Positions 2,812 to 10,628 of a stretch of 42,263 bases of DNA are shown here, one piece after another. Made by a program: the position numbers and the translations under genes. Under the pieces are notes generated by a model. It had not been told where the DNA came from and did not search any database. It was given only the letters and a program-made list of their open reading frames with translations. Source of the DNA: a virus; IMG/VR virus record IMGVR_UViG_3300045988_043105, positions 1 to 42,263 of that record; one strand, given 5' to 3'. Position 1 is the stretch's first letter. Every line of letters starts with the position of its first letter.

Positions 2812-3027
2812 GTGGAATTGACGACATGGCTTCCGGTGGTTGCAAGCGCGGTCGGCAGCCTTGCAGGCGTGCTTGCATCTAACAAGCTGATGCAATATCG
2901 CATCCAGCAGCTCGAAAATAAGGTCAACAAGCACAACAGTATCGTCGAGAGGACGTACAAGCTTGAGGGCGAGGTCAAAGAGCTCCAACATGATGTGCGG
3001 GACTTAAAAGGAGATATCAAGGTATGA
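2812..3027 (+). CDS. Lysis-cassette membrane protein: N-terminal TM plus C-terminal coiled coil (holin accessory, XhlA-like class)
   Basis: GTG start after a GAGGTGA RBS. Hydrophobic N-terminus WLPVVASAVGSLAGVLA followed by heptad-like QQLENKVNKH..VKELQHDVRDLK. ATGA overlap with the holin. Confidence 0.55.
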   Translation: MELTTWLPVVASAVGSLAGVLASNKLMQYRIQQLENKVNKHNSIVERTYKLEGEVKELQHDVRDLKGDIKV

Positions 3028-3278
3028 GGATTAACTGGTTGGTACGCTTTCACAACAAGACGTTTCTGGCGTCGTTTCTGGCGTTGGTGATCGCGTTTGT
3101 CTATAATCTGCTGGCGCTGTTTGGCGTAACGCCATCTGTGCAGCAGGACGCGCTGTTGACTGCTGTCAACGCGATTCTGACGGTGCTGGGCATGATCGGC
3201 GTGATTGCCGACCCGACGACCAAGGGCATCAGCGATAGCGCGCAGGCGATGACCTACGACAAGCCCAAGGAGGGATAA
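3024..3278 (+). CDS. Holin (phi-LC3 / phage_holin_4_1-like)
   Basis: MRINWLVRFHNKTFLASFLALVIAFVYN...GVIADPTTKGISDSAQAMTY matches the characteristic holin family pattern. Two TM segments. Confidence 0.8.
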   Translation: MRINWLVRFHNKTFLASFLALVIAFVYNLLALFGVTPSVQQDALLTAVNAILTVLGMIGVIADPTTKGISDSAQAMTYDKPKEG

Positions 3279-3293: not shown

Positions 3294-3521
3294 GTGCGTC
3301 TTGACTGCGACAGACGCACGAAAGAGGAAATCGCCCATGACTGCGGCTTTGACGAGCACGTCCGGCTAGGTCAGGTCTTCGACCTGCTCTGGCGTGGTTA
3401 CAGCATTGTGCAGATCAGTATGACGCTGGGCATGTCTCCAGCGACCGTCAGCCGCAGCATCAGAGAGATTAAAATACGGATGAGATCATCCTTTCGCAAA
3501 GATGACAATCCCCCGGCCTGA
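3294..3521 (+). CDS. Small HTH protein (sigma-70 region-4 / LuxR-like HTH)
   Basis: AAGGAGG RBS then GTG. GYSIVQISMTLGMSPATVSRSIREIK is a helix-turn-helix segment. Confidence 0.55.
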   Translation: MRLDCDRRTKEEIAHDCGFDEHVRLGQVFDLLWRGYSIVQISMTLGMSPATVSRSIREIKIRMRSSFRKDDNPPA

Positions 3522-3573: not shown

Positions 3574-3602
3574 TTGACAAGTAAATTGAAATGATGTATT
3601 AT
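3574..3602 (+). promoter_or_regulatory. Near-consensus sigma-70 promoter P1 (TTGACA-17-TATTAT, TG upstream of the -10)
   Basis: TTGACA 3574-3579, 17-nt spacer, TATTAT 3597-3602. Shares AAAACACTTGACAA and AATGAT with the promoter at 5360. Confidence 0.75.
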
Positions 3603-3644
3603 ATGACCACAAAGAACAAAGGAATCAACCAATAGGAGGAAATC

Positions 3645-4094
3645 ATGAAAAAGTATTATTTGGTGGGCGAGGATATCGCCCGCCGCGAGATCACTGCTGA
3701 GCAGGTGCGCGAATATGCCGGAGACAGTGACTACCGCGTCATTGTCGAGGAGGACGGCAAGCAAGAGCCGCGCCGCGTTGCCTCCGCAGATCTCGCTCCG
3801 GACTGGGAGCCGTTTGTCTTCCCTCCGCGCGAAGGGTATCGGCTGACCGGTTACGAGATCGTGCGGTCGGATTACGAGGGACGGAGCTTCCCGGCGGACT
3901 CCATCCCCGCTGAAGCGGTTAAAACCCAATGGGCTAACCGTTGGGAGGTGCCGGGGGTAAACCCTGCCATCTACTACGCAGAGCCGGTATATGAGCCGAT
4001 TACCTGTGAGGGTGTCGGTGCTTGTGTGTCCTGTAAGCGGCTGACCTGTTCCCGCCGCGGCGCGGGCGTCCGTTGCCGCAATTACAAGGCATGA
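3645..4094 (+). CDS. Hypothetical protein (149 aa), first gene of accessory cassette 1; Cys/Arg-rich C-terminus
   Basis: AGGAGGA RBS 6 nt upstream of the ATG. No family recognised. Confidence 0.65.
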   Translation: MKKYYLVGEDIARREITAEQVREYAGDSDYRVIVEEDGKQEPRRVASADLAPDWEPFVFPPREGYRLTGYEIVRSDYEGRSFPADSIPAEAVKTQWANRWEVPGVNPAIYYAEPVYEPITCEGVGACVSCKRLTCSRRGAGVRCRNYKA

Positions 4095-4136
4095 TTTCGT
4101 CGCACGCAGACGTGGACGGCGAAGAAGGGAGAAAAA

Positions 4137-4487
4137 ATGGAAAAGGTAATTTGCGGCCTTTGCGCCGCCCGCCACCCGCTGCCGGTGACGGAGTACATTT
4201 ACCCCGAGACCGTCAACCCGTTGGATTTTGACGGTCTCAAGGCGGGCGCGGTTAAGTTCATCCTTGACCGCGTGGGCGTTGAGTCTGTGTACGCCCAGCC
4301 GATCAACGGCAACGATTACACGGACACGGAGTGCTTCCGCGGTCGTCGTGAGCTGGTGGTCTACGTCACCGGCTTGACGGCGGCTACAGCGGCAGTCATT
4401 GCCGCATGCGCAGAAAACGGCGTGCATCTGACGTTGATGCACTTTGACCGTGAGTGCGGCGATTATAAGCCGCAGGTAATCTTTTGA
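4137..4487 (+). CDS. Hypothetical protein (116 aa), cassette 1
   Basis: GAAGGGAG RBS. The segment VVYVTGLTAATAAVIAACAENGVHLTLMHFD suggests a small alpha/beta domain. Family not recognised. Confidence 0.65.
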   Translation: MEKVICGLCAARHPLPVTEYIYPETVNPLDFDGLKAGAVKFILDRVGVESVYAQPINGNDYTDTECFRGRRELVVYVTGLTAATAAVIAACAENGVHLTLMHFDRECGDYKPQVIF

Positions 4488-4501
4488 GAGGGGCGGAAAA
4501 A

Positions 4502-4996
4502 ATGAACATTAAACAGCTGCGCATCCTGCGCGGATTGAAGCAGAAGGAGCTGGCGGATAAGATGGGTATATCCGCGCAGCAACTCAATAACTATGAAGGG
4601 GGTAAGAGCAACCCCGGAAACAAAATTCTGCCCGCGCTGGCGGATGCGCTGGGCGTTTCGACCGCCTACCTTCGGGGGGGCGCGCAGCGTTTGGCCGTCT
4701 ATGACTGGCAGACCGGGCGCACTGAGGCGCTGCCCATCATGGCCGAGACGGTGATCGACGATTACGGCATCTTCTACCTCGTCGAGCACCCGGAGATTGG
4801 AATGATGGCGGTGATCCAGTCTGAGGGTATGCAGTTTACTCTTGCGGACTGGACGGCAGATCAACCGCTGACCGTCGATGCAATCAGCGGGAAGCAGTGG
4901 ATTGACAGTCGCGGCGAGGATGCAATCATGTACAAGGGGCTACCGCGCATTCTTGTTGGCGGCGAATTTGGGAGTAAGCAAAGCCGTATTATCTGA
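4502..4996 (+). CDS. XRE-family HTH regulator with a roughly 100-aa C-terminal domain of unknown function
   Basis: MNIKQLRILRGLKQKELADKMGISAQQLNNYEGGKSNP is a classic XRE HTH. ATG 4502 is preferred over the track's TTG 4484. Confidence 0.8.
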   Translation: MNIKQLRILRGLKQKELADKMGISAQQLNNYEGGKSNPGNKILPALADALGVSTAYLRGGAQRLAVYDWQTGRTEALPIMAETVIDDYGIFYLVEHPEIGMMAVIQSEGMQFTLADWTADQPLTVDAISGKQWIDSRGEDAIMYKGLPRILVGGEFGSKQSRII

Positions 4997-5012
4997 AAAG
5001 GGAGAGAAAGAT

Positions 5013-5294
5013 ATGATAATCAAAATTTACAAGTCTTACGGTGTGCTGGCGCATGAATACCATCCTGTATATACATGGAGATGCCCACAAAGTGATATCT
5101 ATGATGAGATCAGCGTCGATATCCCGAATATTGACGGCGAGAATTGCGATGGCGACCCGCTTGTCAATCTGGGCGACGGACTTGTTTATCCGCTTCGGAT
5201 GGTGCTTGGCAACTGGGGCGACGAGCCGGCGCTTATCTGGTATGATGGCGCAGCCCAACGCCACAAAATCCTGAAAGCCTATACCAAACTATAA
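5013..5294 (+). CDS. Hypothetical protein (93 aa), last gene of cassette 1
   Basis: GGGAGAGAAAG RBS before ATG 5013. The track ORF 4878 is an upstream extension overlapping the previous gene. Confidence 0.6.
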   Translation: MIIKIYKSYGVLAHEYHPVYTWRCPQSDIYDEISVDIPNIDGENCDGDPLVNLGDGLVYPLRMVLGNWGDEPALIWYDGAAQRHKILKAYTKL

Positions 5295-5299
5295 GACAT

Positions 5300-5328
5300 C
5301 CCCGGTCAGAAAGCCGGGGCTTCTTTTT
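5300..5328 (+). terminator. Rho-independent terminator of cassette 1
   Basis: CCCCGG-tcagaaag-CCGGGG followed by CTTCTTTTT. Confidence 0.75.
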
Positions 5329-5359: not shown

Positions 5360-5388
5360 TTGACAAATAAATAAAAATGATTTACAAT
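5360..5388 (+). promoter_or_regulatory. Near-consensus sigma-70 promoter P2 (TTGACA-17-TACAAT), paralogous to P1
   Basis: TTGACA 5360-5365, 17-nt spacer, TACAAT 5383-5388. Same upstream AAAACACTTGACAA and same ATAGGAGGA leader/RBS as P1. Confidence 0.75.
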
Positions 5389-5429
5389 TATGCTTGTAAG
5401 GGAACAACCCGATAGGAGGAGAAGAAACC

Positions 5430-5978
5430 ATGAAAGAAAAGTACAAGCAGCAGCTTTCCACCGCCGCGCGCGAAATCTTCGAGCACTCCGGTGCTCAATT
5501 CTCTCTGATTGGCGACAAGATGGCCGTGTCGCCGCGTGACAAGGCCGTCAAGTTGGTCAAGGCGCATCCGGCCGAGATGCAGGAGATCAAGGCCGCGCTG
5601 ATGGACGAGGAAGCCGAAGAGCGCGAAACCGCCGAGCGTCGCCGGAATCTCCGCAATGCAATCCCCGGCTTGAAGGAGCTTGAAGCAGCGAAAGCCGAAC
5701 AAGCGACTTACCGCGAAGCGTTCGCGCGGGCTGTGGATAGCGGCAACGGCATCTATCCCGCCAAGCCCGGGAGCGATCCGGCGGAGCTGAGCGCACAATA
5801 CCCGATGGCGGCCGCGATGCTCCACGCGGAAAGCTACTCCTGCGCCGCCAATTACCGCAAGGCCAGCGCAGGAAGAAAAGCCGTCGAGCGCATCCTTGAC
5901 GGTGAGGATTGGAAAAAGGCCGTCAGCGACATGGAGAATGAGTGGCGCGAGGCGACAAGCGAGCATATGTGGGACTGA
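5430..5978 (+). CDS. Hypothetical protein (182 aa), single-gene cassette 2
   Basis: AGGAGGAG RBS. Charged, helical-looking sequence. No family recognised. Confidence 0.65.
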   Translation: MKEKYKQQLSTAAREIFEHSGAQFSLIGDKMAVSPRDKAVKLVKAHPAEMQEIKAALMDEEAEERETAERRRNLRNAIPGLKELEAAKAEQATYREAFARAVDSGNGIYPAKPGSDPAELSAQYPMAAAMLHAESYSCAANYRKASAGRKAVERILDGEDWKKAVSDMENEWREATSEHMWD

Positions 5979-6000
5979 TAAAAACCTGATACATTTCTGA

Positions 6001-6031
6001 CGCGCATCGGATAGGTGCGCGCCCTTTTTTT
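6001..6031 (+). terminator. Rho-independent terminator of cassette 2
   Basis: CGCGCA-tcggatagg-TGCGCG followed by CCC+T7. Confidence 0.7.
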
Positions 6032-6065: not shown

Positions 6066-6437
6066 GTGTTTGTTCCATTTAACCCAAATCCTTTTCGTTC
6101 TCGTGTTGGCGACTGCGCGATTAGAGCGGTAAGCAAAGCGACCGACCAGACGTGGGAAAGCGTATTCGTCGCGCTTTGCCTTGATGGTTTCTGCGTTGGA
6201 GACATGCCGAACGCAAATCATGTCTGGGGCGCATATCTTCGGCGCAAAGGATTCAAGCGTCACAGCATCCCGGAGACGTGCCCGGACTGCTATACGGTTT
6301 CTGACTTCTGCCGAGACTTTCCGCGTGGCGTTTACGTTTTGGCGACAAATGGACACGTTCTCGCGGTCGTGAATGGTGATTGGTATGACACATGGGACAG
6401 CGGCGGAGAAACGCCCCTTTACTATTGGGAGGGATAA
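6066..6437 (+). CDS. Hypothetical protein with a papain-fold-like Cys...His...Asp pattern (putative cysteine peptidase-like)
   Basis: GTG start. VGDCAIRA, GHVLAVV and DTWDS are spaced as in small Cys-peptidase folds. The family name is not certain. Confidence 0.45.
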   Translation: MFVPFNPNPFRSRVGDCAIRAVSKATDQTWESVFVALCLDGFCVGDMPNANHVWGAYLRRKGFKRHSIPETCPDCYTVSDFCRDFPRGVYVLATNGHVLAVVNGDWYDTWDSGGETPLYYWEG

Positions 6438-6440
6438 TTT

Positions 6441-6887
6441 ATGGCTTATCCGATGCAAGGCTGGCAGCAGCCATACGGCGGATATTACCCGCCTATGCAA
6501 GATCAACTCGCGCAGCTCAGATCGCAGCCGTACATGCCGCAGCAGCCAGCGCAGCAAGCGCCAGCTCAAAATGGCGGCGGAATCATCTGGGTGCAGGGCG
6601 AAGCAGCGGCGAAAAGCTATCCGGTCAGCCCCGGAAGCGGCGTTCTGCTGATGGATAGTGAATCCTTGACGTTTTATCTCAAATCTGCGGACGCAAGTGG
6701 TATGCCGTCGATGCGAATCTTTGACTACACCGAGAGGACAGCACCGAGGCAAGCCGAGCCTTCCGTGCAATCATCCGAGTATGTGACCCGCGAAGACTTC
6801 AACGTGCTTGTGGCGCGGGTCGATGCGCTGACAAAAAAGCCGAACAGAAAAAAGGAGGATGCAGTCGATGAGCAACCCGCTGTTTAA
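6441..6887 (+). CDS. Hypothetical protein with a Pro/Gln/Tyr-rich N-terminus and a small beta-rich core
   Basis: MAYPMQGWQQPYGGYYPPMQDQLAQLRSQPYMPQQPAQQAPAQ is a low-complexity head, followed by IIWVQGEAAAKSYPV..MRIFDY. Confidence 0.6.
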   Translation: MAYPMQGWQQPYGGYYPPMQDQLAQLRSQPYMPQQPAQQAPAQNGGGIIWVQGEAAAKSYPVSPGSGVLLMDSESLTFYLKSADASGMPSMRIFDYTERTAPRQAEPSVQSSEYVTREDFNVLVARVDALTKKPNRKKEDAVDEQPAV

Positions 6888-7098
6888 TGCGATGCAGGGA
6901 ATGTCTGGGCATCTGCCTGGACAGATGGGACAGTTTCAGCAGATGGCGCAGGAGTTCAAGCGGTTCAAGGCCGGATTTAACGGTGATCCGCAGCAAGAGG
7001 TTCAGCGCCTACTCAACAGCGGCAAGATGACGCAGCAGCAGTTTAATCAGCTCTACGGCATCGCCCGCCAATTCCAAAGCCTCTTTGAAGGTCTATAA
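6868..7098 (+). CDS. Small Gln/Met-rich protein (76 aa)
   Basis: AAGGAGG lies 9 nt before ATG 6868 (the track start 6859 is in frame). Overlaps the previous gene by 20 nt. Confidence 0.55.
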   Translation: MSNPLFNAMQGMSGHLPGQMGQFQQMAQEFKRFKAGFNGDPQQEVQRLLNSGKMTQQQFNQLYGIARQFQSLFEGL

Positions 7099-7148
7099 CG
7101 GCTAAATCCGTGCGCACGGTTAGCATAAAAAAGAAAGGACGTGTGAAA

Positions 7149-7964
7149 ATGTCTTTGACAACCTCTGAAATGACCCCTGCCGATATCGCGGCGGTAACGG
7201 GCGGAAATCGCAACAACGGCGGCATGTTTGGAGACGGGAACGGCGCGTGGTGGATCATCGTTCTGTTCCTCTTCATGTTCTGCGGCTGGGGCGGCATGGG
7301 CTGGGGCGGCGGCTTCGGCAACAGCGGCGCAAATTCTCCGGGCTTCCAAGGCTACGCGACCCGCGCCGACATCAACGAAGGCTTTGCCATCAATGGCATT
7401 GACAACGGCATCCGCGCCATCCAGAACGGTCTTTGTGACAGCACCTACGCCATCACCAACGCCGTCAACGGCGGTTTCAGCGCGGCGGAGCTTTCCCGCG
7501 CCAACCAGCAGGCGGCGCTCATGCAGCAGCTCTTCACGATGCAGATGCAGCAGGCGAACTGCTGCTGCGAGACGCGCGAAGCGATTCAGGGTGTGAATTA
7601 CAATCTCGCTACTCAGGCTTGTGACACGCGCAACCAGATGCAGCAGGGCTTCTGCGCCATCCAGAACACGCTCAACAGCAACACCCGCGACGTGATCGAC
7701 AACCAGAACGCCAACAGCCGTGCGATTCTCGACTTCCTCACGCAGGACAAGATCGCAACGTTGCAGGCGGAAAACACCGATCTTCGCCGCGCCGCGTCGC
7801 AGGAGCGTCAGTCGGCGCTGCTGACCACGGAGATGGGGGCGCAGACTGCGCAGATCATCAACGCGCTGCGTCAGCCTGTAGCCATCCCTGCGTATCAGGT
7901 GCCGAACCCCTACACGGGCGGTTACGGTTATGGCTGCGCTGCTAACGCCGGCTGTAGCTGCTAA
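7149..7964 (+). CDS. Membrane protein: Gly/Trp-rich TM segment, Asn/Gln-rich body, multiple Cys (CCC; C-terminal GCAANAGCSC)
   Basis: ATG 7149 after a GAAAGGA RBS. The WWIIVLFLFMFCGWGGMGWGGGFGN segment resembles YjcZ-type Gly-rich membrane peptides. Confidence 0.6.
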   Translation: MSLTTSEMTPADIAAVTGGNRNNGGMFGDGNGAWWIIVLFLFMFCGWGGMGWGGGFGNSGANSPGFQGYATRADINEGFAINGIDNGIRAIQNGLCDSTYAITNAVNGGFSAAELSRANQQAALMQQLFTMQMQQANCCCETREAIQGVNYNLATQACDTRNQMQQGFCAIQNTLNSNTRDVIDNQNANSRAILDFLTQDKIATLQAENTDLRRAASQERQSALLTTEMGAQTAQIINALRQPVAIPAYQVPNPYTGGYGYGCAANAGCSC

Positions 7965-8030
7965 AATCGCATAAGAGATGCAACTGTTCGGCGCGACCGA
8001 GCTGTTCAGCCCTGAGCTGATTCTGCAACG

Positions 8031-8062
8031 ACGGCGGGGCGAATGTGTCCCGCCGTTTCTTA
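8031..8062 (+). terminator. Rho-independent terminator (weak U-tract)
   Basis: ACGGCGGG-10 nt-CCCGCCGT is a perfect 8-bp stem followed by TTCTTAT. Confidence 0.55.
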
Positions 8063-8078
8063 TGAAAGGAGATAATTT

Positions 8079-8501
8079 ATGGCTGAGTATACCAACGCCA
8101 GCACAGCACTTGTTGCGGCCGGCCAGAATCTACCGCTGACCGAAACGCCGATTTGCGGCTCTCCGTGCATCGTCCATCGAGAGGGCGCGGGAATCGTAAC
8201 ACTTCGCGGCCTGACGAACCAGTGCCGAGCGCGGTACTTTGTGGACTTCGCCGGGAACATTGCCATTCCGACCGGAGGAACGGTTGGGGCGATCTCCGTT
8301 GCGCTGGCGATAAACGGCGAGCCGCTGAATAGCGCCGTCGCTATCGTCACCCCTGCGGCGGTCGAGAACTATTTCAACGTTTCCGTATCCGCATTTGTCG
8401 ATGTGCCGCGTGGATGCTGCGTAACCGTCGCGCTGAAAAACATCAGTGCGCAAGCGATTGACGTTGCCAACGCAAACCTGATCGTCACGCGGCAGGCATG
8501 A
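8079..8501 (+). CDS. Small all-beta protein resembling the BclA C-terminal / C1q-TNF-like jelly-roll domain
   Basis: AAGGAGA RBS. The alternating beta pattern (IVHREGAGIVTL, RYFVDFAGNIAI, ISVALAINGEPL, VTVALKN, ANLIVTRQA) looks like exosporium BclA-C-type domains. Confidence 0.4.
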   Translation: MAEYTNASTALVAAGQNLPLTETPICGSPCIVHREGAGIVTLRGLTNQCRARYFVDFAGNIAIPTGGTVGAISVALAINGEPLNSAVAIVTPAAVENYFNVSVSAFVDVPRGCCVTVALKNISAQAIDVANANLIVTRQA

Positions 8502-8515
8502 GAAAGGAGAAAAAT

Positions 8516-8884
8516 ATGGGTATGAAAGCAATGCGCGACTTGCGCGATATGCTTTGCGATGAGCTGGACAAAATCGCCGCCAAGCGCGACATGAACCCCG
8601 GCGACCTTGAAACCGTTCACAAGCTGACCGACACCATCAAGAATATTGACAAAATCGAAATCCTTGAGGACGAAGGCTACAGCAACAGCGCGGAGTGGCG
8701 TGCTGACGTGCGCGGAAGCTATGGACGCAACGACCGACGCGGCGAACATTACGTGCGCGGGCATTACAGCCGCGACGACGGGCGTGAAAGCATGATGCGC
8801 AAAATGGAAGAGATTATGCGAGATGCGACCGGCGAACAGCGCGAAATCATCCGCCGCGCAATGGACGAGCTGCGCAACGCCTGA
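8516..8884 (+). CDS. Hypothetical charged protein (122 aa), Arg/Asp/Gly/Tyr-rich centre
   Basis: AAAGGAGA RBS before ATG 8516 (the track start 8498 is in frame). Confidence 0.6.
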   Translation: MGMKAMRDLRDMLCDELDKIAAKRDMNPGDLETVHKLTDTIKNIDKIEILEDEGYSNSAEWRADVRGSYGRNDRRGEHYVRGHYSRDDGRESMMRKMEEIMRDATGEQREIIRRAMDELRNA

Positions 8885-8900
8885 CAGGCGGTGAGCAGCA

Positions 8901-9239
8901 TTGATCGACCTGAAAGAGATCGACGAAACCATCACCAAGATCAAGCGCGAAGGGACGAGCGTAAAAGACGCTGAACGTCTGGCGGTGCTGTACGGTCTTC
9001 GGGCGCACATGGCGAGTGAATCTGTGCAGGATGTGAAGGAAGCGCCCGCTTCGGCGTACTCGATGGCGGCAGAGCCGGAAAGCGAGTTCCGCGCTGCGTG
9101 TGCAGGCTTGTCATCTGCCGAGCTTGTCGATGCGCTGGAAGACACGATTCAGGGCTTGCAGATCGTCGCGCCGAAGGCATACGCGGCGGCAATCCGAAAA
9201 CTGAAAACGCGCCCAGATGAGCAAAGAGGTCGGGGATAA
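8901..9239 (+). CDS. Hypothetical protein (112 aa), last gene before attP
   Basis: TTG start. Its stop codon lies in the loop of the terminator at 9227-9256. Confidence 0.5.
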   Translation: MIDLKEIDETITKIKREGTSVKDAERLAVLYGLRAHMASESVQDVKEAPASAYSMAAEPESEFRAACAGLSSAELVDALEDTIQGLQIVAPKAYAAAIRKLKTRPDEQRGRG

Positions 9240-9256
9240 ATCCTCGACCTTTTTTG
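9227..9256 (+). terminator. Rho-independent terminator ending the accessory block
   Basis: AGGTCGGGGA-taaa-TCCTCGACCT is a 10-bp stem with one G-U pair, followed by T6. Confidence 0.8.
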
Positions 9257-9281
9257 CGTGTGAATTATCGTGTGAAATGAT
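9257..9281 (+). repeat. attP arm-type repeat pair (CGTGTGAAttatCGTGTGAAATGAT)
   Basis: Tandem CGTGTGAA units. Near-identical to 9476-9500 in the same orientation, and together they flank the tRNA-derived core. Confidence 0.6.
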
Positions 9282-9351
9282 TTTGAAAATGGTTGCACTC
9301 TTGTGGGAAAGAAGTACACGAAACGAGCAAAATTTTACACGCGAAAAATTA

Positions 9352-9396
9352 GAGGATAAAAGAAAAAATCCAGAAACCTTTACGGCTTCTGGATTT
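9352..9396 (-). terminator. Minus-strand terminator directly downstream of the tRNA 3' fragment
   Basis: AAATCCAGAA / TTCTGGATTT is a 10-bp stem with an 11-nt loop. On the minus strand it is followed by TTTTTTCTTTT. Confidence 0.7.
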
Positions 9397-9403
9397 CCTG
9401 TTT

Positions 9404-9431
9404 GGTGCGGTAGATGGGACTTGAACCCATT
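9404..9431 (-). other. attP core: 3' portion of a tRNA gene (T-arm + acceptor + encoded CCA), not a full tRNA
   Basis: The minus strand reads ATGGG-TTCAAGT-CCCAT-CTACCGC-A-CCA. No matching 5' acceptor (GCGGTAG) occurs within 100 nt. It lies 82 nt from the integrase 3' end. Confidence 0.7.
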
Positions 9432-9475
9432 GTATACGACTATTTTTCATTGTATTTACTAGCTTTTTTATTTTT

Positions 9476-9500
9476 CGTGTGAAATTTCGTGTGAAATGAT
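9476..9500 (+). repeat. attP arm-type repeat pair (CGTGTGAAatttCGTGTGAAATGAT)
   Basis: Second copy of the 25-nt unit at 9257-9281. It lies between the core and the int stop. Confidence 0.6.
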
Positions 9501-9512
9501 GCTCAAAAACGG

Positions 9513-10628
9513 CTATTTTTTCGCCGAAACAGACCCGTACAAGGCTGCTGTTCCAGCCGCCATTTTGGCGTTGACCTCTTCCTGCCGTTCGCGGAAAAGC
9601 TCGACGTACACCTGATGGGAGAAGGCGGACGTTGAATGACCCATGACGCGGGCAAGCTCTTCCTCGGACGCACCGGAGTAGGCGACGGATGTTGCGAAAA
9701 AGTGCCTCAAATCGTAAAAGCGCATCTTTTCTGGAAGCTCCAGTGCCGCTCTGCATTTTTTCCACCTGTAGTCAACGAGCATCGGCTTTAACGTCAGTAT
9801 TTGGTCACAGTCAGCACCTCGCGGCTTGCAATCGTACAGATTTTGGAAGAAAGACCAATCGAGACGAAGCACCCGCTCTCCTGCATCTGTTTTTGTGACG
9901 TTTTTTCCGACATATGCGCTGGATTCATCGCGCACCGTGGCTTTGTCAATGCTCAAAAGCCCCATCTTGTAGACCCTTCCATCTCTGCTGATTGCGGAGA
10001 CGGGTTCAGCGGACAGATCACCCCACGTCAAAGCGTATGCCTCAGATGGGCGTAAACCTGCGCTCACGATGAAGCAGCAATAAAGGTAGAAATCCACTTC
10101 CCAATGCTCTTTGGCGTAGGTCAGCACGTCTCGCGCCCAGCCCTCAGAAAAAAGCTGTTTCTTCGATTTTCGGCGTTTGGCTATGACGACGCCAGACAGA
10201 TTCAGATCGGGGGCGTATTTTCCCAAAACTGAGCGCAAGAAGTAAAATTCATTCCGAACCGTTTTCACGGAATGATCTTTAGCTCTTGTGTCAATCGCCT
10301 TTTGGATATCTCGCTCTGTGATTTGATCTAAGCGCAAAGAGACAAGTGCTGGAAAGCCATTTGCCCGTATCGAGACATACGCCGGAATCGTAGACGGCGA
10401 ATAGCCCTGCACCCTACAAGTATCTATAAACTCGTCCATCGCCTGACCGAGCGTCAGCGTTTGCTTCTTCTTCCTCTTGCGATCGGCAGCGGCGACGGCG
10501 GCGAGACGTTCAGATTCGCGGGCAGTCGATGCGGTAAAGGATTCGACGATGGGCTTTCCCGCCGCATCACTGCCGAGGTAAACCTGTGTTCGCCAGTTAC
10601 CGGAAGGCAGCTTTTTGGCTTTTGCCAT
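9513..10628 (-). CDS. int: Tyrosine recombinase / phage integrase
   Basis: The N-terminus MAKAKKLPSGNWRTQVYLG is an arm-binding type. The C-terminal YDLRHFFAT...MGHSTSAFSHQVYVE carries the R..H.R..Y catalytic pattern. AAGGGGGA RBS. Confidence 0.9.
   Translation of the reverse strand: MAKAKKLPSGNWRTQVYLGSDAAGKPIVESFTASTARESERLAAVAAADRKRKKKQTLTLGQAMDEFIDTCRVQGYSPSTIPAYVSIRANGFPALVSLRLDQITERDIQKAIDTRAKDHSVKTVRNEFYFLRSVLGKYAPDLNLSGVVIAKRRKSKKQLFSEGWARDVLTYAKEHWEVDFYLYCCFIVSAGLRPSEAYALTWGDLSAEPVSAISRDGRVYKMGLLSIDKATVRDESSAYVGKNVTKTDAGERVLRLDWSFFQNLYDCKPRGADCDQILTLKPMLVDYRWKKCRAALELPEKMRFYDLRHFFATSVAYSGASEEELARVMGHSTSAFSHQVYVELFRERQEEVNAKMAAGTAALYGSVSAKK

Follow-up and report, generated by a model that had tools for sequence, protein, structure and literature searches.

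A conserved seven-gene operon downstream of the lysis genes

Seven co-oriented genes that precede the integrase gene of a 42,263-nucleotide phage genome (IMG/VR virus record IMGVR_UViG_3300045988_043105, positions 1 to 42,263, analysed at its full length and called the window here) are a real, widely conserved operon of gut Clostridia phages. These genes, designated p1-p7, occupy positions 6066-9239 on the + strand and form an uncharacterised, widely distributed module; we found no known system of such composition. We propose, with a probability of about 0.35, that the block, a small helix-turn-helix (HTH) gene upstream of it and a repeat operator in front of p1 (Table 1) would constitute a self-contained "post-late" operon of gut Clostridia siphophages, which would build an assembly centred on p4 and p5. 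A preliminary description of this stretch had listed the seven genes together with several motifs in their products, and every one of these was found again.

Eighty-six related loci were retrieved through p5, and gene presence was scored in them by tblastn. We detected p5 and p6 in all 86 loci, p2 and p4 in 85, p1 in 83, p3 in 71 and p7 in 55, with more copies of p7 found by hidden Markov model (HMM); p6 and p7, previously taken for "two charged orphans", are thus regular members of the set. Gene order and strand were identical wherever the genes were found, p7 always followed p6 directly, and the set was also present by HMM in 38 bacterial genome loci (Oscillospiraceae, Oscillibacter, Dysosmobacter, Acutalibacteraceae and Lachnospiraceae), so that the genes do co-occur as an ordered set in other genomes. 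The block is always the final unit of the late strand, followed 250-700 bp downstream by an integrase gene of one of three types or by the end of the contig or prophage. Apart from inserted cassettes it lies directly downstream of the lysis cassette, and the order of its own genes is conserved across phages with differing lysis cassettes and integrases. Six of the seven proteins match PHROG families, all of function unknown (E 6e-11 to 2e-68). Identity across relatives is highest for p5 (70-77%), about 45-60% for the other members and lowest for p7 (about 30%). In public data, searches with p5 and with p4 each returned at least 8000 candidate clusters at 90% identity, from sources including Gemmiger formicilis and "Caudoviricetes sp."

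In the lemur-gut Dulem virus 33 (L001 among our numbered loci) the lysis genes are followed by the same ordered block, as they are in a Gemmiger prophage, whose block borders on rnf genes of the host or, in the circular form, on the integrase. In the Butyrivibrio phage Ceridwen, p1-p7 come directly after the lysin and holins (p7 by HMM, E 9e-16). According to the available portions of the paper describing it, the Ceridwen isolate was observed in the lytic cycle only and its authors suggest that it is virulent; no integrase is annotated in the 18-kb Ceridwen stretch that we examined. Together with the p4 relatives of crAss-like phages described below, the presence of the block in Ceridwen argues against a function confined to lysogeny. 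The same portions of the Ceridwen paper report no virion proteomics for the block genes, their mentions of the proteome concerning lifecycle prediction and phylogeny. In the wider literature we found no paper that mentions the PHROG families of the block, and nothing useful for the Clostridium perfringens phages.

As a separate observation, an opposite-strand gene annotated 'endonuclease' (L001 12960-13511) lies between p3 and p4 of Dulem virus 33, the block being otherwise syntenic; we suspect a homing endonuclease.

Searches of Pfam, NCBIfam and PADLOC returned nothing above threshold for any of the seven proteins. The earlier opinion that the block is not virion, lysis or replication machinery agrees with these results, since confident homology to such functions was absent from Pfam, PHROGs and NCBIfam, and the exclusion system that had been offered as an alternative gained little, with 0 PADLOC matches for the seven proteins. 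The block stands apart in composition: cysteine makes up 2.3% of its residues versus 1.0% in 13 other long open reading frames (ORFs) of the window, and Gln plus Asn make up 12.4% versus 7.7%. By hydropathy, p4 alone among p1-p7 has a hydrophobic stretch of membrane-spanning grade, and hydropathy and composition analysis revealed no export signal in six of the seven proteins. The idea that the block is recently acquired foreign DNA was rejected, its GC content (55-59%) being the same as in the rest of the phage.

A candidate regulator and operator for the block

The two short cassettes that precede the block (3574-5319 and 5360-6021) each have a terminator and a TTGACA-17-TAnnAT sigma-70 promoter (11/12 match), whereas no sigma-70-type promoter was found in the sequence upstream of p1. 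The region in front of p1 contains three direct repeats with 11-bp spacing (Table 1), which form a putative operator or activator site, are unique within the window and precede none of the late genes. The terminator of the upstream cassette overlaps this putative operator, and a -10-like box (TATGCA / AAAAAT) lies 3' of its hairpin. Relatives likewise have two or three direct repeats and a -10 box upstream of p1, with differing repeat sequences, and the operator classes that we distinguished include A, CCTTCGTT; B, TGAKRCA; and C, CTGAYR. For classes A and B, which were defined by regular expressions and are not the class of the window, 46 of the 47 tandem occurrences in 984 kb of related loci fall at most 130 nt upstream of p1.

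A small HTH gene lies between the holin gene and the block in 72 of 84 loci, 70-3300 nt from p1. The holin gene ends 12-16 nt before its start, with no strong terminator until after the HTH gene. The window protein scores 20.1 bits on Pfam GerE (PF00196), below the cut-off of 23.5, and weakly on HTH_38 as well; its counterpart in the Gemmiger phage reaches 37 bits on PF00196, and other classes weakly match Sigma70_r4_2. When the class of the HTH protein, defined by its recognition helix, was tabulated against the class of the operator, all pairs fell on the diagonal (29, 9, 3 and 6) with zero cross-class pairs. This pattern suggests that the HTH protein of the window is likely to be the cognate regulator of the block, and, its gene being the last of the late (lysis) transcript, expression may have an additional, still later tier.

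Among phage activators of late genes, Alt of the lactococcal phage TP901-1 and the RinA/ArpU-type regulators act at promoters whose -35 box is replaced by direct repeats. The block shares with these systems a small phage DNA-binding protein and a promoter with a -10 box, upstream direct repeats and no -35 box; it differs from them in that the repeats of the window stand only before an accessory operon and not before packaging or morphogenesis genes.

These features bear on the suggestion, made in the preliminary description, that the block remodels the host surface or acts in lysogenic conversion. Under such a reading, p4 and p5 would be expressed from the prophage and would decorate the envelope or spore of the lysogen, altering adhesion, phage adsorption or immune recognition. 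The block does occupy the classic position of a moron, beside attP and the integrase, it has its own terminator, and p4 is a cysteine-rich membrane protein. Morons at the lysis-integrase junction of temperate Firmicutes phages are similarly placed and similarly bounded by terminators; the block differs from them in having no autonomous sigma-70 promoter and in being an order-conserved unit of seven genes that also occurs in a phage observed solely in the lytic cycle. The gene for its matching regulator is the last of the lysis transcript, crAss-like phages have relatives of p4, and six of the seven proteins have no export signal. We therefore consider conversion unlikely.

The products of the two upstream cassettes are an XRE-type HTH protein and three orphans (149, 116 and 182 aa), and these cassettes are better candidates than the block for prophage-expressed morons.

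p5 has a TNF/C1q-type jelly roll

p5, which matches phrog_20016 (E 5e-63), is predicted by AlphaFold to be an all-beta protein of 11 strands (predicted local distance difference test (pLDDT) 87, predicted template-modelling score (pTM) 0.81). Foldseek placed the C-terminal domain of F-BclA (9h38) first among its PDB matches, then BxpB (8d02), ExsFA (7r1m) and BclA (1wck); further PDB matches are TNF-family ligands and some phage fibre tips (probability 1.0, E 1e-6 to 1e-4, template-modelling (TM) score 0.68-0.74). In BFVD the best matches are stand-alone proteins of 130-140 aa from uncultured gut phages, followed by collagen/C1q-tailed proteins. On the strength of the model we confidently assign p5 to the TNF/C1q/BclA-C jelly-roll fold, and the protein is presumably a trimer.

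A resemblance of p5 to BclA-C and C1q had been noted from its sequence. The AlphaFold and Foldseek results bear this out at the level of the fold; at the level of sequence no homology was found, since neither phmmer nor a profile search against PDB sequences, including those of 8d02 and 7r1m, gave a match up to E = 10. Nor does p5 have the architecture of BclA, as its jelly roll begins at residue 2, and GXX repeats and a collagen-like stalk are missing. p5 shares its fold with BxpB/ExsFA, BclA-C and F-BclA, and it resembles BxpB/ExsFA also in being a stand-alone protein of about 140-150 aa. It differs from these exosporium proteins in being encoded by phages, including one observed solely in lytic growth, and in having hosts that are not restricted to exosporium formers: besides Ceridwen, p5 is found in phages and prophages of Oscillospiraceae, Lachnospiraceae and Acutalibacteraceae.

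Assembly of the spore coat and exosporium involves the cysteine-rich ExsY/CotY, the low-complexity CotG/ExsB, the HTH regulator GerE and the cysteine protease YabG. The block recalls this inventory by fold and composition only, with a GerE-type regulator, a cysteine protease, a BxpB-like TNF fold, and cysteine-rich and low-complexity proteins. The link to spores or the exosporium that had been drawn earlier is doubtful: it goes back to resemblance of fold, without homology at the sequence level and with a broad range of hosts. For conversion of the lysogen surface, the fold of p5 would be a point in favour, exosporium BclA-C, BxpB and ExsFA being its closest structures, although p5 shows no sequence homology to exosporium proteins and is unusually conserved for a surface-exposed conversion factor. 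Compared with the other proteins of the block, the conservation of p5 fits a conserved partner better than a surface engaged in an arms race.

The same fold allows p5 to be seen as part of an effector released by lysis, in the manner of Shiga toxin or colicins, in which the products would build up shortly before lysis and leave the cell with the progeny; p5 would be a trimeric lectin or receptor binder and p4 would insert into membranes, directed at neighbouring bacteria, at cell debris, or at mucus or glycans of the host. The apparently late control of the block, its six signal-less proteins and the hydrophobic Gly-zipper segment of p4 are compatible with release at lysis, and the TNF fold is found in the receptor-binding heads of phage fibres and in the heads of collagen/C1q-type proteins. 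TNF-like lectins of bacteria are also described in the literature (PMC12914763). An effector of this kind nevertheless seems improbable to us, because the block encodes no immunity-like second membrane protein and no match to a toxin domain, p5 is too conserved for a receptor arms race, and the gain for a virulent phage is unclear.

p4 belongs to a large protein family

p4 matches phrog_16490 (E 2e-68), and its homologues begin at the second Met, which corresponds to a start at 7149 and a length of 271 aa. From the N- to the C-terminus, its alignment shows an acidic tail, a Trp-flanked transmembrane segment that runs into a Gly-zipper, PGFQGYATRADINEGF, a helical body rich in Asn and Gln in which a CCC is invariant, the motif PxPVPAYxVPNP and a cysteine-rich end. 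Searching PDB with the single p4 sequence gave no meaningful match. An exhaustive profile search yielded 2816 clusters at 50% identity. The listed lengths of the family are about 100-400 aa, mostly 200-300, and none is long enough to suggest that p4 is fused to another domain. With few exceptions, p4 and p5 are neighbours in genome loci in which both ORFs lie inside the contig. Between them in the window is a GC-rich hairpin (Table 1), and the RNA of positions 7960-8085 folds with -43.7 kcal/mol (z = -2.4). The hairpin may be an internal attenuator, or else a processing or mRNA-end stability element that splits the operon into p1-p4 and p5-p7.

Full-length relatives of p4 are encoded by crAss-like phages, by an isolated phage of Bacteroides uniformis, by several C. 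perfringens phage isolates and by Methanomassiliicoccales-assigned viruses. In the crAss-like phage cr53_1 the relative stands beside a holin and a LysB-like gene, in the archaea-assigned viruses it follows tail and diversity-generating retroelement (DGR) genes, and in the C. perfringens phages a p2-like gene is found near it. The relatives in crAss-like phages are annotated 'spike protein/glycoprotein' or 'outer capsid protein/viral fiber'; these annotations appear to be inferred rather than experimental and to reflect coiled-coil-type similarity.

Side by side with its p4 relative, the cr53_1 locus (L127 4060-6704) contains a 211-aa protein annotated 'RNA polymerase sigma factor/ubiquitin-like', whose Arg/Gly/Tyr-rich tail recalls p6, and a 146-aa beta-rich protein that could be an analogue of p5. 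Neither neighbour was detected by the HMMs of the block. These genes hold in-frame stops under translation table 11, which would fit stop-codon recoding.

The annotations of the crAss-like relatives raise the question of a virion accessory, for instance a fibre, decoration or ejection protein whose gene happens to lie past those for lysis. The TNF fold is indeed common in phage fibre tips, and p4 genes follow tail and DGR genes in crAss-like phages as well as in the archaea-assigned viruses. Against this, the block appears to have its own regulator, and in the window the lysis genes, two terminators and two independent cassettes stand between it and the morphogenesis genes. Members of the p4 family are spread over sipho-like, crAss-like and archaeal-virus genomes whose virion modules are unrelated. 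Proteins of low complexity that are rich in Gln or in Arg, Gly and Tyr would also be atypical of virions. With the crAss-like annotations being apparently inferred, we regard a place in the virion as quite unlikely.

In another reading the block would be an accessory required for lysis or egress, with p4 as a spanin-like protein, a modulator of the holin or a disruptor of an outer layer, and p1 as an extra wall hydrolase. This reading overlaps our main proposal and is separate from it only in the claim that the block is required for lysis. The block lies downstream of the lysis cassette, and p1 weakly resembles the amidase Tae4. In locus L119 a small hydrophobic protein precedes p4; it was read as holin-like, and it matches no holin family and gives only a weak match to HlyD_2. 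As in the i-spanins (Rz of lambda, LysB of P2), p4 has an N-terminal transmembrane segment, a helical body of extracytoplasmic type, conserved cysteines and a location near lysis genes. It differs from i-spanins in lacking both sequence similarity and an outer-membrane lipoprotein partner, no lipobox protein being present in the block; moreover, the Clostridia hosts are monoderm, without an outer membrane, and the family extends to archaea-assigned viruses. Further difficulties are that p2, p3, p5, p6 and p7 go unexplained and that the p4 relatives of the C. perfringens phage CPD1 and the Bacteroides phage C3_41T2LP are away from lysis genes. A requirement of the block for lysis thus appears rather improbable.

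p1 resembles papain-fold hydrolases

p1 matches phrog_3754 (E 3e-28), with a CPDC motif, and Cys17, His97 and Asp108 are invariant in alignments of 22 and of 35 sequences. In its AlphaFold model (pLDDT 95; helix 17-26, strands 97-102 and 105-108), Cys17 opens the helix, and His97 and Asp108 are on adjacent strands. Foldseek gave only weak matches, Josephin-2 being the best (E 0.026, TM 0.43), followed by Tae4, the TssM deubiquitinase (DUB), MCF and USP5; none had E <= 0.001, and TM did not exceed 0.5. The description of p1 as peptidase-like has thus held up, given the invariant Cys/His/Asp, the Cys at the N-terminus of a helix and the fact that the weak fold matches are all papain-fold hydrolases. 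By fold class, p1 is a probable minimal papain-like cysteine hydrolase; because the structural matches are weak, it cannot be placed in a specific family. p1 shares the Cys-helix followed by His and Asp strands with C39 and NlpC/P60 enzymes, Tae4, Josephin/USP proteins and transglutaminases, and at 123 aa it is smaller than any of those enzymes. Neither p1 nor 22 of its homologues has a Pfam match, and single-sequence and profile searches of PDB gave no meaningful sequence match. Some solo homologues in Tsamsa-like phages of Bacillus are annotated "putative peptidase".

We considered p1 as a C39 peptidase that cuts a double-glycine leader on p4. No C39 model matched, and the idea was retained as a possibility only. 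A leader-like 'ADIAAxTG[GSN]' is common at the N-terminus of p4 and is missing from several homologues, an ABC transporter is absent from the block and its flanks, and BLASTP between p1 and the 'C39-like family peptidase' of bajarodcaudo virus 5 was not significant (E 0.26). p1 as an endolysin domain was likewise unsupported, as the solo homologues in Kirov and GBK2 lie outside lysis cassettes.

Some loci have retained chiefly p4, p5 and a p6-like gene; instead of p1 they contain a gene for a metallopeptidase-like protein of about 105 aa with an HExxH motif (Table 1). The protein of L119 shows sub-threshold matches to DUF6782, Peptidase_M78 and SprT-like families, and that of L110 has no Pfam match. 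The HExxH gene may be a functional substitute, a metallopeptidase standing in for a cysteine peptidase, and its presence in loci without p1 makes a small peptidase a recurring companion of the block.

The structural matches of p1 also invite a role in anti-defence or host takeover, for example as a deconjugating, DUB-like protease. Josephin, the TssM DUB and USP5 are among its best fold matches, and p1 is found by itself in Bacillus, Geobacillus and Lak phages, in regions that are early or accessory. All of these fold matches are weak, however (E >= 0.026, TM <= 0.5), and late control and a membrane anchor would be unusual for counter-defence. PADLOC gave no matches, though it holds defence proteins and not anti-defence proteins. 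In our view such a role is very improbable.

A short ORF of about 45 aa with the motif ERLIxAG...LExY was observed directly upstream of p1, and overlapping it, in L001 (11757-11906), L006 (upstream of 7074), L053 and L062. It is absent from the window.

The low-complexity proteins p2, p3, p6 and p7

In these four proteins, conserved cores of short length are combined with low-complexity segments. p2 matches phrog_21718 (E 7e-33) and consists of a disordered head rich in Pro, Gln and Tyr, a conserved beta-rich core of about 55 aa (IIWVQGE...FDYTER) and a C-terminal helix. It is also found in the C. perfringens phage CPD1 and in bajarodcaudo virus 5, and it has no PDB profile match and no Pfam match. 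p3 is Gln-rich and helical and matches phrog_22984 (E 3e-19); of its two potential starts, the one at 6868 (76 aa) is likelier, as its homologues start at MSNPLF. p6 matches phrog_28802 (E 6e-11) and has an N-terminal helical region with an invariant Cys, a low-complexity middle rich in Arg, Gly, Tyr, Ser and Asp, and a C-terminal helix. Pfam scans of 20-22 homologues each of p1, p2 and p6 returned scattered chance matches only.

In two loci, L009 (955-1356) and L010 (1115-1570), the blocks share 94-99% identity with that of the window; only the N-terminal two thirds of p2 (window 6441-6800) departs from this, at 52-54%, and the C-terminal helix of p2 is again near-identical. This apparent swap of alleles suggests that the p2 core may be an exchangeable specificity element.

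A proposed post-late assembly at the end of infection

In our proposal, the HTH gene would be expressed as the last part of the lysis transcript (endolysin, XhlA-like gene, holin and HTH gene), and its product would bind the 11-bp-spaced repeats, which would substitute for a -35 box, so that p1-p7 would be switched on at the very end of the lytic cycle. p4 would span the membrane once, by its Gly-zipper segment, and would further consist of a helical stalk rich in Asn and Gln, the CCC motif and a cysteine-rich tail; it would contact p5, the two forming the core of a membrane-anchored assembly. The signal-less, low-complexity p2, p3, p6 and p7 could serve as adaptor or matrix components, while p1, or the zinc-peptidase-like protein of some lineages, might trim, mature or cross-link a component of the assembly. 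This assembly would act on the envelope or debris of the dying cell, for example by aiding egress, by binding or masking envelope material, or after release as a complex. A function tied to the end of the lytic cycle is more likely than remodelling of the surface of a healthy lysogen.

Several observations weigh against this proposal. The covariation of HTH proteins and operators is confounded by common descent, the parts being inherited together. We infer both activation (as opposed to repression) and late timing, the former from the missing -35 box only. p1 homologues occur alone in Tsamsa-like phages of Bacillus, in the Geobacillus phage GBK2 and in Lak (mega)phages, and the p4 relatives of CPD1 and C3_41T2LP are found among recombination and replication genes rather than lysis genes. 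p4 has no positive-inside signal and its topology is ambiguous; were its body extracellular, the partners, which lack signals, would have no access to it until the holin has acted. Finally, given the hairpin between p4 and p5, equal amounts of both are not required.

A broader form of the same proposal would see in the block a host-independent machine that gut viruses use at the end of infection: a regulator-switched, peptidase-matured assembly rich in Cys and Gln, built on a TNF-fold trimer and forming a coat-like layer or egress structure on the lysing cell, with the p4 anchor common to phages of Clostridia, to crAss-like phages of Bacteroides and to methanogen-assigned viruses. We offer this generalisation as a long shot.

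The block is very common in gut metagenomes, and the p4 family spans phages of Gram-positive hosts, phages of Gram-negative hosts and archaea-assigned viruses. None of the members has an annotated function. A defined function would annotate thousands of "hypothetical" genes of the gut virome, and it would also test whether phages use TNF/C1q-fold and coat-like low-complexity proteins at lysis. If the regulatory reading holds, temperate Firmicutes phages would have a fourth temporal class, "post-late", beyond early, middle and late. The predicted HTH-operator pairs are directly testable and could serve as orthogonal switches. Cultured systems include the Butyrivibrio phage Ceridwen, the C. perfringens phages and Gemmiger or Lachnospira lysogens.

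Layout of the block and neighbouring features

The gene order upstream of the block is a tail-fibre gene, an NlpC/P60-SH3 endolysin gene (2056-2796), an XhlA-like gene, a PF04531 holin gene (3024-3278), the small HTH gene and the two short cassettes. The coordinates of the block and of the features around it are collected in Table 1.

Table 1. Positions of block genes and associated features in the window; the last three rows refer to related loci.
Feature	Position	Strand	Description
Small HTH gene	3294-3521	+	75 aa; LuxR/GerE or sigma region-4 type; start codon 16 nt beyond the holin stop
Three direct repeats	5975-6007	+	11-bp spacing; CTGATAAAAAC / CTGATACATTT / CTGACGCGCAT; CTGA repeats; putative operator/activator site
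GC-rich hairpin and T-run	6001-6031 (terminator scan 6001-6021)	+	terminator of the upstream cassette, overlapping the putative operator
p1	6066-6437	+	123 aa; GTG start; VGDC at residues 14-17, GHV at 96-98, DTWD at 108-111
p2	6441-6887	+	148 aa; head rich in Pro/Gln/Tyr
p3	6859 or 6868 to 7098	+	79 or 76 aa; Gln 20% of residues
p4	7110 or 7149 to 7964	+	284 or 271 aa; WWIIVLFLFMFCGWGGMGWGGGFGN; CCC; C-terminus GCAANAGCSC
Hairpin between p4 and p5	8029-8057	+	GC-rich, 11-bp, plus TTTCTTAT; directly before the p5 ribosome-binding site
p5	8079-8501	+	140 aa; all-beta
p6	8498-8884	+	128 aa; start overlaps the p5 stop codon (ATGA); translationally coupled to p5
p7	8901-9239	+	112 aa; TTG start; acidic, Ala-rich, helical
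Closing terminator, hairpin and T-run	9229-9255	+	overlaps the p7 stop codon; read directly from the sequence
Integrase gene	9513-10628	opposite to the block	
HExxH gene following the block, L119	7043-7354		
HExxH gene following the block, L123	7003-7329		
HExxH gene following the block, L110	8512-8835		

Elsewhere in the window, a gene for a DUF6275 protein (1639-1941; PF19791, E 5e-27; phrog_918) lies between the tail-fibre genes and the endolysin gene. A protein of 615 aa from L042 (L042 1199-3046) is matched in its C-terminal part by the ORF at 235-1218, at 43-54% identity. This L042 protein has collagen-like repeats, its N-terminal 250 residues are unmatched in the window, and its gene sits after the lysis genes of L042.

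The stretch of about 260 bp between the terminator of the block and the integrase gene (9257-9519) aligns in reverse, at 83-84% identity, with the otherwise near-identical loci L007 and L008. In the window, direct repeats of 38 nt (9252-9289 and 9471-9508) border it on either side, and a doubled CGTGTGAA motif is present in each. The repeats at 9252-9508 could be arm-type sites of the integrase around attP, or the segment could be invertible.

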